The notes below the pieces were generated by a model. The model saw only the letters and a program-made list of their open reading frames with translations. It had not been told where the DNA came from and did not search any database. 64,000 bases of DNA from Psilocybe cubensis (lineage: Eukaryota): the NCBI GenBank assembly GCA_017499595.2, contig CM039000.1, forward strand, positions 3,286,001 through 3,350,000. Direction: 5' to 3'. A program made the translations under genes and the position numbers. Positions 2,888 through 12,000 of the stretch are shown in pieces. How positions within the stretch are numbered: position 1 is the first letter of the stretch; each line of letters opens with the position of its first letter.

Positions 2888-4229
2888 ACCTTGCCCAAAA
2901 TGTACAATAGTTTTCTAGCAATTTCAGCTCTTGAAAATAAGATTGCCCTTGGTTTTCTATGTACAGTTCATAATTAAGGTTGGGGGACTCGCGTGGCAGA
3001 TTGAAATTCTTTCCTACAGATCGTCAATCCCTAGGACGCAGGGCGCGCTGCCCAAGCGCCGCCACGCCCTGAATGTCGGCGGCAATGATGCGCATCACAG
3101 CCAGTGGAAGCTTCTGACAAGCACAGCCAAACAAAGTTTTGTATTTAAAGCGACGCTTGCTTCTGGTTTCTCCTTGTCGCAACCTGCATAGACAGTGCCA
3201 GCCCTATGAACATCCACATGTGGCGCGGTGATTCAGGTAAAGCGCAGAGGGATGCCTGGCCGGGTATAAGAACTCGCCCACTAGATTTGTAGTGTCGTGA
3301 GTGTCAGACCTTTCCTACAAATACTTTGTCGCAATGCTATTTTTTTTCCAACATTGAATTGTCCATTTGTCCTGCATCAACTTGCTGTCTGCCTTCGAGC
3401 CCTTCCGCTACCTTGCAACAACGATCGAACGGTGGAGACTATTGCCATACATTGCTGGCGGAATCATGATCGACGGTAAAATTTTACTGGAGTAACCAAC
3501 ATCCATTGATCATCCGCCAGATCTCTTAAATATCGCACCTACCATTCTACTTCCATCTCTAGTACGACCTCAAAATGTTGAGATATCTATCCAGCTTACC
3601 GATTCCCACAAGTTTTTCAAATCTGCTTCAAGCCAAAAGAATTATTGATATTGATTTATGTGTGAATACTCCTGGTAAAGAGGGACAGAAAGTTAAACTT
3701 CGAGAGGTCAGTGTACCAGTTCAGTACGATGATCTTGTTCATCGGCTGGAGCAGCTAGGTGTGTACAGTGTCTGCGTTGACTTTGCCATCGGGCGGCTAA
3801 TACACCAAATGCAGGATACCATAACCGTGATCCTAGCGTATTTTTTTTGCCTCAAATACGTATGGCGTTGAAATCACGTCCGAGAAATCATACTCTGACT
3901 TTTGCAATGGTGGTGAAATTAATCTATGACGGTCGCTCCAGCGGCAGCAGCAAACTGTACTGCAAAGCTGTGTTGATGAGACCCACGACGCTTATGAAGA
4001 ATAAGGATAGGCAGTAGATTGAAAGGATAGAAACTTACATATATAAGAAGGTAAATCACAACGTGTGTGACACGTAGCACCTGATTGAGTGACTCATGTG
4101 ACAAGAAAGGTGTCATATGGATCCACGTCGCGGGCTTGTACGAGTACAAGTAGCGCTCCGAGTTACACTTCTTGACAAATTTAAGCCTTCTCAATCTTCG
4201 AGTTTGATACACGAAATTCATCACCAGCC

Positions 4230-5196
4230 ATGTTCATCTTAAACTGGTTCTGGGACGTCCTCGCACAGCTTGGTATATATGCCACCACTTTTTGTAATAT
4301 CATGGCCACTGACGTGTTTGCTTTCCCAACTTGCACAGGCCTGTTGCACAAGAACGCTAAAATCTTGTTCCTCGGTTTGGATAATGCTGGAAAGACTGTA
4401 TGTATATATGACTTAATAATGAATTCAATTAACCCAAAATCTCTCCAGACACTGTTGCACATGCTCAAAAATGACCGACTTGCCACGCTGCAACCCACAC
4501 TTCATCCCAGTAATACAACTCCGTCATATACTTTGAAAGCCATTCATTAACATGCAATCTGACAGCCTCGGAAGAATTGGCTATTGGAAATGTAAAATTC
4601 ACCACCTACGACTTGGGTGGACATCAACAGGGTTCGCCTACCTTTATTCCTCGTATTTCTCCCATACCCATAATCCTTCTGCAGCTCGTCGCCTCTGGCG
4701 TGACTACTTCCCCGAAGTCGATGGTATCGTCTTCCTTGTAGATAGCGCCGACTTTGAGCGTTTCTCCGAATCGAAAGCGGAGCTGGACGCCCTTCTTTCT
4801 ATCGAGGAGCTCTCAAAGGTTCCTTTCCTCGTCCTCGGCAATAAGATTGATGCACCCGGTGCCGTCAGTGAAGAGGAGTTGAGGCATCACCTTGGTCTTT
4901 ACCAGACAACTGGAAAGGTACGTAGAATCTATTGTTTGGGGTTTTGTACATCTGCTTTAATACTATTTAATATGTTACAGGGCAAGGTACCTCTCAGTGA
5001 CATTAGGCCCATTGAGATTTTCATGTGCTCAGTCGTCCAAAGGCAAGGTTACGGAGAAGGTCAGTACCTTTGCGTTCTTATCTTTGACCATGGCTTACCG
5101 AGCTTCTCTTCAGGTTTCCGCTGGATCTCTCAATATGTAAGTCTAGATCTTCTTTTCACTACGAATACTGTTTTAACAACGCCTTTCCAGATCTAA
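4230..5196 (+). CDS. SAR1: Sar1 small GTPase (COPII), 8 exons
   Basis: [88 protein letters not shown]. Introns at 4273-4338, 4398-4448, 4510-4565, 4632-4684, 4918-4980, 5060-5113 and 5137-5190. Confidence 0.98.
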
Positions 5197-5567
5197 TCGG
5201 CTCCGATTATACCGAAGCGTTTTCCATGGACTCCCCTTCGTCGTATATGCATTTTCTTTCACTTCTCTGGTACTCAGTAGAGCTGCACTTTCTTTGATTG
5301 CTTGAGTACAGTAGCCCTTTTCTTCAATACACTTTGTTATTAGAATTACAACTATTAGCATTGTCTGGATCTACTGGGTAGGTAGTTTTAATAATGGATG
5401 TCCAGATTGCAGACTTTTTCAAAATAGCCATGAAACTTGTAAAGAAGTTACTGTGCGTCATCGTTAAGGCTTCGAGTTCACAGTGACAAAGTGCAAGTTA
5501 TCTGTTGCGTTGTATGTTTCGAACATGTGAAATTGAAGTTCCTGTCCGCATCAGGAAGAGAAGGGCC

Positions 5568-7157
5568 ATGCTGTCTTCTTCCCCCTCACTCTCGTTACCT
5601 TCCTTCCAAAATGTCCTACTATCTTCAATTATTATAAGAGTCGCCTTGATTCTTTACAGCGAGTGGCATGATGCTCATTCCATCGTGAAATACACGGACG
5701 TCGATTATCGCGTCTTTAGCGACGCGGCATCCTTTTTGCTCCATCCTGGTCCTGGCGAAGCCAATCGAGCGCAAGGACCGCTCACAAAATTGTTTGGGCG
5801 CGTTCTGAATTTCGGAGAGTGCGTTACTTGTCCTTCTAATCCTTGCAGAAAGTAGTCATTTTCTAACATAAAGCTACCTTACAGTCCGTATACCAGAGAG
5901 ACATACCGGTATACGCCTTTGCTTGCATTGCTTGTTACGCCCAACGCGTGGCTGCTACCTTCGTTTGGAAAATACGTGTTCGCACTCTGCGATATCATAA
6001 ATGGGGTCTTGACATACCGACTACTCAAAACAGAGATCCTTCCGGCCGTCAATACTTCCAGCCTTTACGACAAAGGAGACAAGAAAGAAAATGAGGACAC
6101 TTCTCCTGAACGTATAGAGCGCCTGGCGACGTTGTACAGTGCAGTGCACCTGCTGAACCCTCTCGTCTTCTCGATATCCACACGCGGCTCGTCCGAGTCT
6201 GTTCTGTCGCTTTTTGTCCTATTGACGTTGTACGCGGCCGTGAAAGGCCGGTGGGACATGGCCGCTGCTTTGCTCGGGCTGAGTACGCATTGGAAGATAT
6301 ACCCTGTTATATATGGAGTTGCATGTTTGGGCGTTGTCGGTCAGCGGGAAGTGGGTTCAGGGACGAGGATGGAGTATGTAAAGACGTTGGTGAATAAGAA
6401 GACTATGAGGTTTGCGGCAGTGAGTGCGGGCACTTTTGGACTGCTGGGTATTGGGTGCTATGCCATGTAAGCCTTGGGTTTTTAGCCTTCATCTTGCTTT
6501 CCATACTCACACATTTTTTTGCATTTATAGTTGGGGGTATCCCTTTTTATTTGAGTCGTACCTTTACCACCTCCACAGACTAGACCACCGACACAATTTT
6601 TCGCCCTACTTTTATCTGACATACCTCACATACCCATCCTTCTCATCTGGCTCCTCGTCAACATCGGATCCTCTTCCCTTGTGGAACACCATTCTACGAT
6701 CGCCCCTGACGAGCTTTATCCCTCAGATGGGGCTTTCACTCTGCTCAGGCTTGCTTTTCGGGAGGAGGAAAAAGGATTTAGTTTTTGCATGGTTCGTACA
6801 GACATGCGTATTCGTAATATTCAACAAAGTATGCACATCACAGGTGAGCACTCTTTAGATTGAAAAATTTCCCCAAAAAATCAACTTATTATATAACAAA
6901 ATAACACTTCACTGTTATAGTACTTCCTGTGGTATCTGCTCCTCCTACCGCTGCTTCTCCCTCAACTGTCGATGTCTCTACGAGACTCCGTCTTATACGG
7001 CGGCGTATGGATCGGAACACAAGCACTCTGGCTTAGCCATGCATACCAGCTTGAGTTCCTGGGAGAGAATGTGTTCGTAGGGCTGTGGGTGCGCGGGCTG
7101 GTGTACGTCATTGGAAATTGTTGGGTATTGGTAGGCATTATGCAGGCGTACCAGTGA
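5568..7157 (+). CDS. GPI14: GPI mannosyltransferase I (PIG-M)
   Basis: [15 protein letters not shown] (DxD), [65 protein letters not shown]; multiple TM segments. Confidence 0.95.
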
Positions 7158-7300
7158 CATATAGTAGGTATGTGTGTCTAGTTGACCTTAGGTATGCTGT
7201 GCGAGTCGGTCCCAAAACGATGACAGTCATATACTGCTTCCCAAGAGTCAAGATTGATATGAGTGTATTGTACACCGTGGCTCAGCAGATGTCGATAGTA

Positions 7301-8449
7301 TTATTCTGAGTCTGAGAAATCCATATCACATTCAGATAGATCAGCTTGATCATTTTCAAGCGTTAAATCTTTGGGCTTGTCGGGCAACGGTGCAGAAGCA
7401 TGACTAAGCACTTTTGCAGGAGGGGGTGGCGGTGGGGGTGAAGACGGAGGTGGGGGCATTGAAGGAGGCGGCGGCGGCGGCGGGTCAAACGGCGGCGGAA
7501 GAGGCGGCGGTTCCTCAGATGGAGGTGGAGGCGGCTGGGAACCATAGTACGAAAATTGACACAGATATGCGGTGGTATTCTCGAAACGAGTACTATACCA
7601 TGTTTCAGAGGGAGGAGGCGATTTGTAGGGTATCAGGTGCTGCGAAGAGAAATAGCTAGGAGGGTAATTTGCCCATCGGATAGGTACGAGAGGTTCATCC
7701 CTGGATTCCTCGTCAGAAGAGGAGGCTGAACTACTCAAGTGGCGACTAGATGAATCTTCAGAGCCAGATTGGTCCTCATGCTTTATATCAGTAAGACGGG
7801 TAATCTTGAAGGTATCTCCAAATGACACTTGGTCTATATGATCATCATCCCCATGGATCTCGAAAGGCGTTGAATCATCAAGTTCACCTTCAATGTCACC
7901 ATCTATTTCGTTCCAGATACGTGATCTAACACGTTCTCGTGGATCAATTGGGCTGATCCATCCAGGAGGGTAACCCCAGACAGAGATATTTCTAAGCCAT
8001 TCTTCGTTGTAGGTCCCCAGGGCTTCCTTCAGGAGTTCTCCCTTGATTTTACCTGGTTCGAATTCTTCCAGCCAATTCAAACGTTGCTGCCTCCAGGCTT
8101 CAACAGCATGAATTCTTTGCCAATTTCCGGTCCCTAGAGTTCCTTGTTTAAATTGATAATATTGCCTTGAGAGTGCTATGAGCTCGCGATTGAGACGAAG
8201 GGGACATTCTGTGACTTTATGATCCGGTTCTCCACAGTTGAAGCACCTGCTTTGATCTGAATCAAGTTGGTGATCCGTCGATTCGCCGTCAACATCATCT
8301 CCTAGAACATTGGTGTCTGACCGTTCGTACACCCCATAGAGTTCATAGAAGCCAGGAATAGGTTCCGCAGAGGAATGATAGAAAAATAAAGGCCCTAATT
8401 CGTTGGTTTGATCTCCGTTGTTTCCGACGGTATTTGGTTCTGATCCCAT
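7301..8449 (-). CDS. ZCCHC8-like protein: CCHC zinc knuckle + PSP domain + Pro-rich tail
   Basis: 382-aa intronless ORF with knuckle CFNCGEPDHKVTEC, PSP-like PGKIKGELLKEALG...WLRNISVWGYPPGW, poly-Pro tract and C-terminal DMDFSD. The start codon overlaps the neighbouring gene. Confidence 0.8.
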   Translation of the reverse strand: MGSEPNTVGNNGDQTNELGPLFFYHSSAEPIPGFYELYGVYERSDTNVLGDDVDGESTDHQLDSDQSRCFNCGEPDHKVTECPLRLNRELIALSRQYYQFKQGTLGTGNWQRIHAVEAWRQQRLNWLEEFEPGKIKGELLKEALGTYNEEWLRNISVWGYPPGWISPIDPRERVRSRIWNEIDGDIEGELDDSTPFEIHGDDDHIDQVSFGDTFKITRLTDIKHEDQSGSEDSSSRHLSSSASSSDEESRDEPLVPIRWANYPPSYFSSQHLIPYKSPPPSETWYSTRFENTTAYLCQFSYYGSQPPPPPSEEPPPLPPPFDPPPPPPPSMPPPPSSPPPPPPPAKVLSHASAPLPDKPKDLTLENDQADLSECDMDFSDSE

Positions 8450-8821
8450 TCTTGCAAGGCTTTGAAGACTGCACTTTCGTCCCAGCGGCCCTTGGCTATT
8501 TCTTTGCCTTCAAGATGTAAAGCAGGAATCCAATAGACATATTTTTTCTTCCACTTTTCCTGTCCTTTGTCTTGGATATTAATAGTATCCAGTTCAAACG
8601 GTCTCTAGATATTGAGCGATGTATGAGTTGAGGCAGTACTTGGTTTGATCTGGACTAGCAATCACCGTCTGCCTAACTTTTGCTAGCGCTGCCTTGGCTG
8701 TCTATAACAGAGTGTCAGAAGTTGTAAGCTTAAACTGGTATGAAAAACTCACGTCGCACAGGGAGCAATTTGGGCCAGAGAAAAGAGTGAGTCGTGGTAT
8801 ACGAGCACCGCGAAGAGCCAT
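8395..8821 (-). CDS. Glutaredoxin-like protein (DUF836, YDR286C/C5orf63-like), 104 aa, 3 exons; absent from the ORF track
   Basis: Exons 8821-8753, 8701-8666 and 8604-8395 with GT-AG introns translate to MALRGARIPRLTLFSGPNCSLCD-TAKAALAKVRQT-RPFELDTINIQDKGQEKWKKKYVYWIPALHLEG...KPTN*. It has a CxxC motif and the IP cis-Pro position of a thioredoxin fold. Confidence 0.9.
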
Positions 8822-8895
8822 TGGTGTTCGAGTCAAATTCTGTTCGAGCTCGCGGCCACGGCTGTCGGCACTTGACGGCAGAATCCAGAAACTCG

Positions 8896-8903
8896 GTCAC
8901 GTG
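8896..8903. promoter_or_regulatory. GTCACGTG E-box in short divergent promoter
   Basis: Lies in the ~245 bp gap between the divergent ATGs at 8821 and 9066. The same 8-mer occurs in the PAM17/SNF2 divergent promoter. Confidence 0.4.
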
Positions 8904-9065
8904 AAAATGATCGGCCCTGGTTGAACTTGATGCGTTTCTGTTGGTACATGCACTTTACATAAAGTTAGCACTGTTGACAGACAGTTAGGGACTTTTTTCG
9001 CGTTACTCGGTTTTCCATTCTTTTCGGGCCACGGATTGTAGGAGTGTGCAGGTCAATGTCTTGCG

Positions 9066-12000
9066 ATGGCTTTGCCAGAACCCTCATGGCGAGTTAAATG
9101 TGCGTTTACTTTACTCTCCACGTTTATGGTCTCCATTCATCCATGAGAACAACATTATAGCACGACCATGTCCTTTTTACCAAGCAGGCAGATGCATGTT
9201 TGCAGAATCATGCAATTTTATTCACAATGCCTCTGCAACTATTAATGCAGAAGTTTTACATTCGAAAGACTCGTCAATCACCCCACACATCGCAGCGGGT
9301 CCCAGCACACCCCATAAATCCCCCGAGGTTATCATAGAGTCACCTCGTTCCATTCGTTCCCCACCCCGCTCGCCGAGAACCACTAGTTTGCTACTTGCTC
9401 TAAGAGATGTCATTGGGGACCCCGACGAAGAAGAAGACGAACTCCGAACGGTTGTTGGAAACCAAGCAATTTCGGCACAGGGTGATAATTGGTCCGAAGC
9501 TTTGCCTACGCTCGTCAACATTGAAAGTGGCTTTGGAGAATTTTCTCAGCCTGAAAACAGTAACGCGAATCACTCAGATTTGGACGAACCGGAAGACGAC
9601 GATTGCGAAGGACACTGGACTGCTATATCAGACTATGACGACGAAGATGGGGATGAGGCAAATAGCGCCTCGGGGGAAAACATTTTCGAGGACGAAACCG
9701 TACACAATGAACCACCGGATGTTATTACACCAGGTGACGATGAACCCACTGTACAACTTTCTGCAGTCGGCCACACAGAAGCAGGTACCATCAGGCCCCT
9801 ATCTTCAGCGTCCTCGGGTTCCCATCGTCAAAGTGTAGCATCTGACATCTCAGCCAACCTTACTGCGTCCAGTCTTTTATCTCCCATCGAATTAGCTGAT
9901 ATCAAGCTCAAACCTATATTTCCAATCGAACGGGGTCATTCTTCTAGAGGTTCCAATTCCTTCGACTCTGGCTATGGGGAAAACTGGAAACCTCCCATTC
10001 CTTTACAAGCAAGTCCCCCGCGCAGTCCATCTGTTAGCTCAACTTTCGACCTTAATTTGTCACCGTTCGGCACACGCACTAGTCGCCTTTTGTCCCCTCG
10101 GCTGGGTGCATTCATTGCTCGCTCACCAGTTTCACCAGCAAAAACAATATTGTCACCAGCAGTGCAAGAAGAAGTCGAAGAATTGGACTTGAGTCTCGAT
10201 TCTCCATCTACCTATCAACAACAGAATGACGCAAACTTTGTAACGAGATCGTTTTCCAGCGAAGAAATAGAAGGGCAAGATAATACTCATTCTTCAGCTG
10301 AACTGATGGAAATTCTGGAAGGCGGAGAAACGCAGGATGAGCAAGAGGATGAAACATCGCCGGATTCCTATGGACATACATCTATATGGGACCCAGAAGG
10401 TGGACCAACAGCTGTCTACATGGGCGATCCTTCAGTTTCTCAGCAAAGTAGCGAAGACGATGCTGAAGATGACACAGCTTTCCTAGCATACCTGAACAGC
10501 CCGCAGTTAGCTCAACAGCCCAACGAAAACGACACGCTTGGTTCATTCTACGACATTTATTCTGGTATTGCACCAGACATTGCCAACCCTTCTCCCTCTC
10601 ACAGCTACGTTGCCGATGCTGGCCGCACCACTCCTCAACCAGAGCCTGCATCTCGGTCAAATTCTTCAACACCCGCCAGCTCTCTGCGAGAGCGCGTTTT
10701 CACTCCGCCAGCACCGATGCGAAAGCGGTCCGGTACTATCACTGCAGCGGATTCACCCAATTCACTATCTTCTCCTATTACTTCACTGGACTCGATTTCA
10801 AGAGGGCGAGCATCGCCTTTTTCTGTATCAGAGCACAATTCTGTTGCTAGAGGTACAGGTAGCCAAAGCCCCTTCGGCCAAGAAGTCGAGGTGTCGAAGA
10901 AAGTACCGTTTGGGTTTAAGAACTCATTTTCATTGGTACGCCAGACAAATAATGCACATATGATGTATACATGTATCTTATACTTCACTTCATCAGGGAC
11001 GCGCTAGTCGATCCTCATTGATGACGAGCCGTAGTGACAGGAGGAGCGTGCCTGCATCTCCTCTTCAACAATATACCCCTGCACCAGGACAGGACTCTTC
11101 TTTAGCGTCTACGAACCAATCTCCTATGACTTCCAGACCAGGCTTGAAGCCTCTACGACTTGTAAGCCTGCCTATCTTGTAGCTGTCGGATATCATCTTA
11201 TTTTATGATTTCTAGTCTACTCTGTTGGATTCTAATCACACTTCACGATCTCATCTGCAATCTCGCATGCCTGCTACTGCCTCAGCTACCGTTACTAATT
11301 TTTCACGTTCTGGTACGTGTTAAGATTGATTCAAAGTTCAAGTCTGATATCATTTTTTTAGGACTTTCTCATCGCACATCTTTATCATCTGCAAGTGTAT
11401 CATCTAGCAATTCATTTTCCGACAATCGTTTGGTAAGCATTAGAAATGTCATTTTGTTGGAGTATGCAACACAAACCTTCTTTTTTTTTGCCTAGTTTTC
11501 ATCTGCACGTTCTTCCGTTATTCTTCCCAAGAATCGCACTAGCGTGACTTCTTCGAAATCTCCAATAATTTCACCCTATATCAGGTCTTTAGCTGATCTT
11601 GAAGAACCCCACTCTGCACCTGCAAATTCCTGGCGCCAATCCATAAATTACTCACGACCTTCCAGTCGGCTTTCCGAGCGGTTCATCGAGGATGACAACG
11701 AAGACGACGACACAGGTCACTTCTCGACGAATGATCCGTACGGAGAAACGATCCGCAGACCTATACCCGCTATGCCTCATACTGCCCCTGCGTTCTATCC
11801 ACCAACGTATGCCATCGAAACGCCCAAGCCGACACTAATGTTCGCCATTGCCAGCGATAATGTAGACGAAGTCAGGCACGTACTTGACTCGGGCGAGGTC
11901 GATCCAAACGAGACCGTTGGCCCGCAATCGGCGCTAATGTTTGCGCTGACGAACGACAAGCTCTCAAATAAACTTGAGATTGTGAAGACACTCTTGGCGT

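Follow-up and report, generated by a model that had tools for sequence, protein, structure and literature searches.

How can a gene be expressed when its start codon lies inside the coding sequence of the gene before it? The question is raised by a locus on the minus strand of a 64,000 nt stretch of Psilocybe cubensis contig CM039000.1 (positions 3,286,001–3,350,000, hereafter the window). The upstream gene is glutaredoxin-like and encodes 104 aa in three exons: exon 1 (8753–8821), with a start codon that has C at −3 and a CxxC motif, exon 2 (8666–8701), placed by the sequence and by RNA-type runs, and exon 3 (8395–8604), which carries a PF05768 match and ends in the stop codon TAG (8397–8395). 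Both introns are GT-AG and free of ATG; intron 1 (8702–8752, 51 nt) is removed in the intronless contig of a relative (L005), and intron 2 (8605–8665, 61 nt) is spliced at the joint 8604/8666 in sequencing run X2. The downstream gene is a ZCCHC8-like ORF of 382 aa (7301–8449, no intron seen; zf-CCHC and a profile match to human ZCCHC8), which is in the −1 frame relative to the first, giving a dual-coding overlap of 55 nt (8395–8449). The ORF takes its start codon from the point where a Glu and a Trp codon of the glutaredoxin meet, xxA-TGG being read as ATG, and each gene has a single match in a search of the genome.

The sequence-only reading had stated that there is no intergenic space between the two genes, that 8449 is the only Met before the Pro-rich tail and that the glutaredoxin coding sequence has no internal Met. 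All three statements hold: the ORFs overlap by 55 nt, the next in-frame Met of the ZCCHC8-like ORF is at 7459, within the tail, and translation confirmed zero internal Met in the glutaredoxin. A reading-frame scan found the ZCCHC8-like frame closed four times upstream in this genome, the last stop lying at 8510–8512 on the minus strand, so that 8449 is the only ATG start available before the tail. This AUG has A at −3, the glutaredoxin AUG has C. Further upstream, a CACGTG element (8898–8903) of putative regulatory function lies in a divergent promoter of ~240 nt which is common with a CCCH zinc-finger gene, and CACGTG or a listed variant occurs 3–100 nt 5′ of the glutaredoxin ATG in 24 of 26 sequences, the remaining two having just 0 and 42 nt of upstream DNA. 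A bacterial promoter scan gave chance-level results, this method not being applicable here.

Both gene identities proposed by the sequence-only reading were upheld, by PF05768, zf-CCHC and ZCCHC8 profile matches, although the functions of the two proteins, including a redox role for the glutaredoxin-like protein, are predicted from sequence. Exon 3 alone matched PF05768 (Glrx-like/DUF836) with an E-value of 1.6e-05 and 25.5 bits against a cut-off of 26, homologues at 47–97% identity carry PF05768, and both Cys of the CxxC motif, which comes from exon 1 and lies near the N-terminus, are kept in 89–90 of 90 relatives. The closest named relative of the ZCCHC8-like protein is from Psilocybe cyanescens (72% identity). 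A profile of 22 relatives placed human ZCCHC8 top among solved structures, over the knuckle and the PSP segment (E 2.5e-12). The knuckle and PSP domains had both been claimed for this ORF; the CCHC zinc knuckle (8201–8248) was found by Pfam (PF00098), but the Pfam scan of this protein did not reach PF04046 (PSP), and the PSP-like segment (approximately 7946–8062, from an alignment to human ZCCHC8 up to residue 330) rests on the human match and on PF04046 matches in relatives.

Immediately after the glutaredoxin stop, beginning a few codons past it and ~46 residues before the knuckle, is an aromatic motif (8375–8386) at about the position of the human C-AIM, with His replacing the acidic residue. 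HMMER did not align it, and its homology to C-AIM is suggested by position and pattern; 63 of 106 unfused representatives carry a loose form of this pattern, which closes with Asp in 52 and with His in 11 (raw counts without a background rate). Human ZCCHC8, the scaffold of NEXT (PDB 7z4y, 7s7b, 7z52), contacts MTR4 via Phe178 and Asp181, which precede its knuckle (222–246) by a similar distance, as given in the available part of PMC6662825. The likeness lies in a knuckle followed by a PSP-like segment and, in many fungal relatives, in an aromatic-x-x-Asp ~45–50 residues before the knuckle; the human protein differs in its length (~700 aa vs. 382 aa) and in having Asp in the motif where this species has His. 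The 21 residues before the aromatic motif are too few to hold the N-terminal coiled coil or I-AIM at the positions that PMC6662825 describes for the human protein, and the profile search gave a weak match (E 0.57) to the ZCCHC8 peptide of 5lxr. As the human N-terminal elements have no space here and the partners MTR4 and RBM7 are putative, we do not claim membership of a NEXT complex.

Four of five listed sequencing runs, from two studies, were compared with the locus, X1 and X2 being spliced (RNA-type) and X3 and X4 unspliced. None of the runs is recorded as RNA; we take X1 and X2 as such because the introns of three genes are skipped in them. Within 8395–8449 the four runs contained two substitutions and zero indels, and an assembly indel, which the sequence-only reading had weighed as a source of the overlap, is ruled out. 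The X2 contig joins exon 2 to exon 3 (8604/8666, 27 letters on the short side) and continues to 8342, past the stop, whilst the X1 contig covers 8605–7978 gap-free and carries 10 loose letters identical to exon 2; the short sides of both joints at intron 2 fall below the 31 letters asked by the alignment tool. Coverage in X1 and X2 excludes exon 1 and intron 1 and gives no evidence either way there. The intronless contig L005 spans the whole pair end to end and continues into the antisense PIG-M transcript. Since L005 and the X contigs also join that antisense transcript, these contigs are no proof of a single molecule. Contig depth (7.5–8.5 over the glutaredoxin and the 5′ ZCCHC8-like part, 19–28 over the 3′ part) cannot rank the parts of the genes and was set aside.

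The same runs revealed variation and processing elsewhere in the locus. About 150 nt past the ZCCHC8-like stop, a 54 nt GT-AG intron (7098–7151, minus strand, antisense to the last PIG-M exon) is spliced from the 3′ UTR in X1 only (joint 7097/7152, with a short side of 29 letters); its presence could be the sign of an isoform targeted to nonsense-mediated decay. Within the ZCCHC8-like ORF, 11 nt between two 4 nt direct repeats (~8175–8186) are absent in X3 and X4, both of one study; no other allele is listed at this site, but contigs drop rare variants. The resulting frameshift would leave 96 aa, with the knuckle present and the PSP segment gone, which suggests that some strains can lose the protein and tempers claims of essentiality. 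Two further length polymorphisms were seen, one of 15 nt, in frame, in a poly-Pro tract at 7474 (X3), the other a 6 nt insertion at 8938 in the divergent promoter (X3, X4).

The arrangement recurs well beyond this genome. Both genes were present in 25 of 27 metagenome loci (L016 and L025 are cut short upstream), and in 25/25 of these informative loci the ZCCHC8-like ORF enters the glutaredoxin end in the −1 frame, with 40–61 nt from the last glutaredoxin Trp to the stop. The codon at the last Trp gives ATG in 15 loci and GTG in 10, the latter all in a distant clade whose 10 loci lack intron 2 and the neighbours found in the other loci. An invariant frame and overlap across 25 of 25 loci is more than chance, and the 55 bp different-frame overlap of the sequence-only reading, together with its proposed check for conservation, is borne out by loci that include ten with other neighbours. 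After removal of near-duplicates (L007, L009, L011, L012) 12 near lineages remained, the window among them, and in all 12 an A closes the codon that precedes the last Trp, compared with 118 of 214 Glu/Gln/Lys codons elsewhere.

Among 150 distant cluster representatives (50% identity), 53 have −1-frame glutaredoxin sequence at the N-terminus and none has +1-frame sequence; 27 are in-frame fused models, two of which are also counted among the 53. Each glutaredoxin Trp codon gives N-U-G followed by G in the −1 frame, and the second residue is Gly/Ala/Glu/Asp/Val in 43 of 48 shorter unfused representatives (a raw count without background), as a Trp-derived start forces it to be. The Met is not always drawn from the same place, coming from the first, third or last glutaredoxin Trp; in P0051 and P0057 the last Trp gives Val and the third gives Met. 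The wider gene order, a Sar1/Arf-family GTPase, PIG-M, the ZCCHC8-like/glutaredoxin pair and the CCCH gene (window 4200–11000), is also kept in most near loci (noted for L002, L004, L006–L009 and L013), with PIG-M farther away and reversed in L010–L012. Judged from these sequences, the pair is old and conserved over many Agaricomycete genera. The overlap may have persisted because of the aromatic motif: a protein that depended on that motif would have to begin ahead of it, within the glutaredoxin coding sequence.

The best explanation, to which we would give about an even chance of being right, is a bicistronic spliced mRNA in which the ZCCHC8-like ORF is reached by scanning. What places this option ahead of the others is a shortage of start codons along the glutaredoxin coding sequence. 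Out-of-frame ATGs there numbered 4 against 26.8 expected in the 12 near lineages outside one site (16 against 33.9 with that site included) and 5 against 28.6 in nine distant loci (L024 left out as a near-duplicate), compared with observed/expected ratios of 0.83–1.16 in control genes, although the loci are related and the codon sites in common are few, so that the independence of these counts is overstated. The depletion extends over glutaredoxin exons 1–2. Met is absent from 79 of 79 glutaredoxin cores (5,139 residues), whilst the ZCCHC8 core of 60 of the same models has 70 Met in 6,173 residues, a comparison in which the high conservation of the glutaredoxin by itself lowers Met turnover.

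The two genes would then form one transcription unit, with a promoter 5′ of the glutaredoxin gene yielding a spliced mRNA with both ORFs on it. The majority of ribosomes would make the 104 aa glutaredoxin, but some 40S subunits would skip its AUG, through its weak context or through a 5′ end at or just past it, would scan a nearly AUG-free coding sequence, would pass or translate a short upstream ORF (uORF), and would initiate the ZCCHC8-like protein at 8449, on the AUG which the −1 frame makes of a glutaredoxin Trp codon. The outcome would be two separate proteins, with the putative nuclear RNA-decay adaptor at a low level. What we observed directly is the layout of the pair, how it is conserved, the codon pattern and contigs that are spliced and cross both ORFs; the single molecule, its 5′ ends, the scanning route and the output ratio we infer.

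Several observations complicate scanning in its simple form. The sequence-only reading had suggested a search for out-of-frame ATGs in the spliced message; when run, it found a strong one that the reading had not reported, at 8540, the sole other ATG between the two starts. It opens a uORF of 14 codons in the +1 frame (8496–8540, minus strand; A at −3) which ends 46 nt before the ZCCHC8-like ATG. The Tyr codon that forms this ATG is kept in 12 of 12 near lineages (12 observed vs. 7.1 expected), so that the site is kept, not avoided, against plain scanning, and the uORF is 9–39 codons long and ends ahead of the ZCCHC8-like start except in L008 and L009, where it runs past. Its 14 codons exceed the usual yeast reinitiation limit of 10, the figure given in the part of PMC5972666 at hand. 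The proposal of leaky scanning through a coding sequence without internal Met is therefore partly upheld: Met is absent and start codons are depleted, but the conserved ATG at 8540 obstructs simple leaky scanning and makes it insufficient. The uORF would damp the second protein or serve for reinitiation.

Nor is a weak first start codon general. The basidiomycete consensus is a purine at −3 and leaky scanning is widespread in Cryptococcus, according to the sections available of PMC7049704; here, of the 11 near lineages that have a start codon, 5 show a pyrimidine at −3 of the glutaredoxin AUG, and none of the 10 distant loci does. In the distant clade the CACGTG-type motif lies 3–13 nt before the glutaredoxin AUG, and in L018 (2500–2565) ~60 nt separate the glutaredoxin start from a likely divergent-ORF start, with CACGTG 7 nt before the former, a spacing that may indicate a very short leader. 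In fungi, AUG starts are known to be exchanged with near-cognate ones (reported in that part of PMC7049704). Two GTG loci, L018 and L026, count against the scanning model: even their unspliced DNA offers no ATG in frame ahead of the knuckle.

The strongest alternative, unlikely in our view but deserving of serious weight, is that the ZCCHC8-like gene has a transcription start of its own in intron 1, intron 2 or exon 3, yields a monocistronic mRNA, and overlaps its neighbour merely as common DNA. A start below 8540 would bypass the uAUG, and in Agaricomycete polycistronic units the downstream genes have transcripts of their own as well, as stated in the accessible part of PMC4503453. Representatives without a nearby in-frame Met were open to a far-upstream Met in 13 of 15 cases, against 25 of 95 with one (Fisher p 1e-5; 110 of 150 representatives classifiable, the 40 dropped being 27 fused models, seven without the knuckle and six short), though gene callers choose the farthest start and the dropped fused models may hide cases without any Met. 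Several of these far-upstream Mets map to introns, and four lineages (L006/7, L010–12, L017 and 8 of 10 distant loci) carry an in-frame ATG close to the end of intron 1 that is open into the ZCCHC8-like ORF; in the distant clade, however, it sits at a likely branch point and is missing or out of frame in L018 and L026. In the P. cubensis genome neither intron contains an ATG and four stops close the frame upstream, and depletion of ATGs in exons 1–2 would be purposeless if transcription began in exon 3. The internal promoter raised by the sequence-only reading thus draws some support from the far-upstream and intronic Mets of other lineages, whilst the exon 1–2 depletion speaks against a start in exon 3. 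Lineages without a nearby ATG are mostly open to a far-upstream, often intronic, ATG, a pattern suggestive of a second route, through internal starts or intron retention, and some lineages may start the ZCCHC8-like protein on a transcript that begins in, or retains, intron 1.

An improbable variant of that route is a processing switch, in which intron retention or a shifted splice site converts the glutaredoxin message into a ZCCHC8 message; the glutaredoxin of many lineages would then be mostly dual-coding. The −1 frame is stop-free over the entire spliced glutaredoxin coding sequence in L006/7, in L017 and in all 10 distant loci, with per-locus probabilities of 0.001–0.014 under the codon usage of the partner gene and 0.003–0.06 under that of the glutaredoxin itself, and between the first and last Trp 4 stops were seen vs. 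22.7 expected (controls 0.65–0.9). Retained introns make up 67.5% of splice variants in Coprinopsis (from the portion seen of PMC12230235), and in 38 of 110 representatives the open frame reaches back beyond exon 3. Five of the ORFs (P0174, P0212, P0229, P0237, P0244) seem by eye to begin at the glutaredoxin start and to pass into the −1 frame by way of intron 1, but five among 38 open is about what we estimate for chance. In this genome no such start is possible, as there is no intronic ATG and the frame is closed until 8509. In a synonymous-site test for dual coding, variation at four-fold sites was not clearly reduced (0.29 vs. 0.27 in the distant clade; 0.57 vs. 0.62 in near lineages); two-fold sites showed lower variation in the distant clade only (0.115 vs. 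0.27). Two candidate splice shifts were rejected: a +4 donor in intron 1 is a strong second donor in L017 only, with the frame closed in this genome, and the stop TAG as a common splice acceptor is present in 24 of 26 sequences with no conserved matching donor.

Still less probable is coupled termination–reinitiation, by which ribosomes would end the glutaredoxin, step back 55 nt and restart. The stop always lies 40–61 nt past the start, which supports such coupling, and ATG and GTG interchange at one place just as viral reinitiation tolerates altered start codons; yet the calicivirus overlaps are 1–14 nt and their efficiency drops with distance (both points from the same part of PMC5972666). 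UGGGA stands 32–93 nt before the stop in 25 of 26 sequences, but it is forced by Trp-Asp/Glu codons, and TURBS-type pairing was rejected, this genome's 18S rRNA having UCCCA nowhere, so UGGGA cannot pair with it. Coupled reinitiation also leaves the depletion of upstream ATGs unexplained.

The least credible reading, a single fused glutaredoxin-ZCCHC8 protein made by splicing or by a −1 ribosomal frameshift, is the one that many public gene models state and that the sequence-only reading had listed as a frameshift or alternative-splice fusion, and it is unlikely, judged on scattered junctions (glutaredoxin motif to knuckle 27–192 aa in 95 models vs. 89–100 codons in 26 DNA sequences; three cut classes of 47, 30 and 18 among 99 fused models), on the lack of any joint fusing the frames between 8604 and 7978 in the X1 contig or in L005, and on the lack, by eye, of a common slippery site in the overlap and of an exon 3 RNA fold better than shuffles (z 0.16). 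In its favour were counted the 99 fetched proteins with both domains in one frame, from many Agaricomycete genera, and the invariant frame offset, but a Trp-derived start fixes the frame with no fusion needed. The named fused models belong to Agaricales, Boletales, Atheliales, Amylocorticiales, Polyporales, Gloeophyllales and Hymenochaetales. One Ganoderma adspersum assembly contains the fused model in several copies (P0092, P0111, P0113, P0117), three of them on one contig, suggesting local duplication of the pair. Gene finders are built to avoid predicting overlaps, as the part of PMC11590231 at hand notes, and the roughly one hundred public 'glutaredoxin-CCHC' proteins are probably gene-finder artefacts hiding a ZCCHC8-like exosome adaptor and a separate glutaredoxin.

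More tentatively, the bicistronic scanning model could be extended to a class-wide, obligate two-protein message, in which the ZCCHC8-like gene would have neither promoter nor start codon of its own and would take its start from a Trp codon (as AUG or GUG) or from an intron. Almost the whole glutaredoxin coding sequence would then be dual-frame in some lineages, and dose would be set by scanning, the conserved uORF, intron retention and possibly feedback of the protein on its own unspliced RNA. Judged by titles and abstract starts, we found no report of a glutaredoxin/ZCCHC8-like pair, nothing by title on fungi in the DUF836 literature, and no literature on fungal intron retention with alternative-frame dual coding; the supplementary text of long-read papers (12–49 thousand characters) does not contain the pair, although full gene tables may already show it. 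The part of PMC4503453 consulted left unanswered how fungal polycistronic RNAs have their downstream ORF translated, and this pair makes the question directly testable in Coprinopsis or Schizophyllum, because it has no promoter spacer, is conserved over genera and offers natural variants (ATG/GTG; first, third or last Trp; open or closed upstream frame).

Three known systems bear comparison. Agaricomycete polycistronic units, from the same fungal class, likewise place same-strand neighbours on one transcript, with gene order conserved for some pairs, but their spacers average 364 and 434 nt where here there is none (available parts of PMC4503453 and PMC11590231), and their genes are also transcribed independently (PMC4503453, same part). 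Same-strand coding overlaps are described as uncommon in eukaryotes in that portion of PMC11590231, and the pair departs from such units in its fixed-frame coding overlap, in a start codon set within the upstream protein's code and in the depth of its conservation. The reinitiation of caliciviruses and some human mRNAs, as far as PMC5972666 was available, shares a stop placed after the start and tolerance of non-AUG codons at the restart site, but differs in overlap length (1–14 nt vs. 40–61 nt here) and in that the host 18S rRNA here lacks a complement to the TURBS core. The leaky-scanning bicistrons of green algae, as presented in the accessible part of PMC11291117, are marked by the same two signatures, start-codon depletion and a weak first context, and resemble the pair in a small first ORF, few start codons before ORF 2 and, in this genome, the weak first context. 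Unlike them, the pair has overlapping ORFs and a conserved, strong out-of-frame uAUG; its weak first context does not hold across lineages, and the case is known from sequence alone. By analogy with what is described there, it is the green-algal bicistron that the glutaredoxin/ZCCHC8-like pair would work most like.
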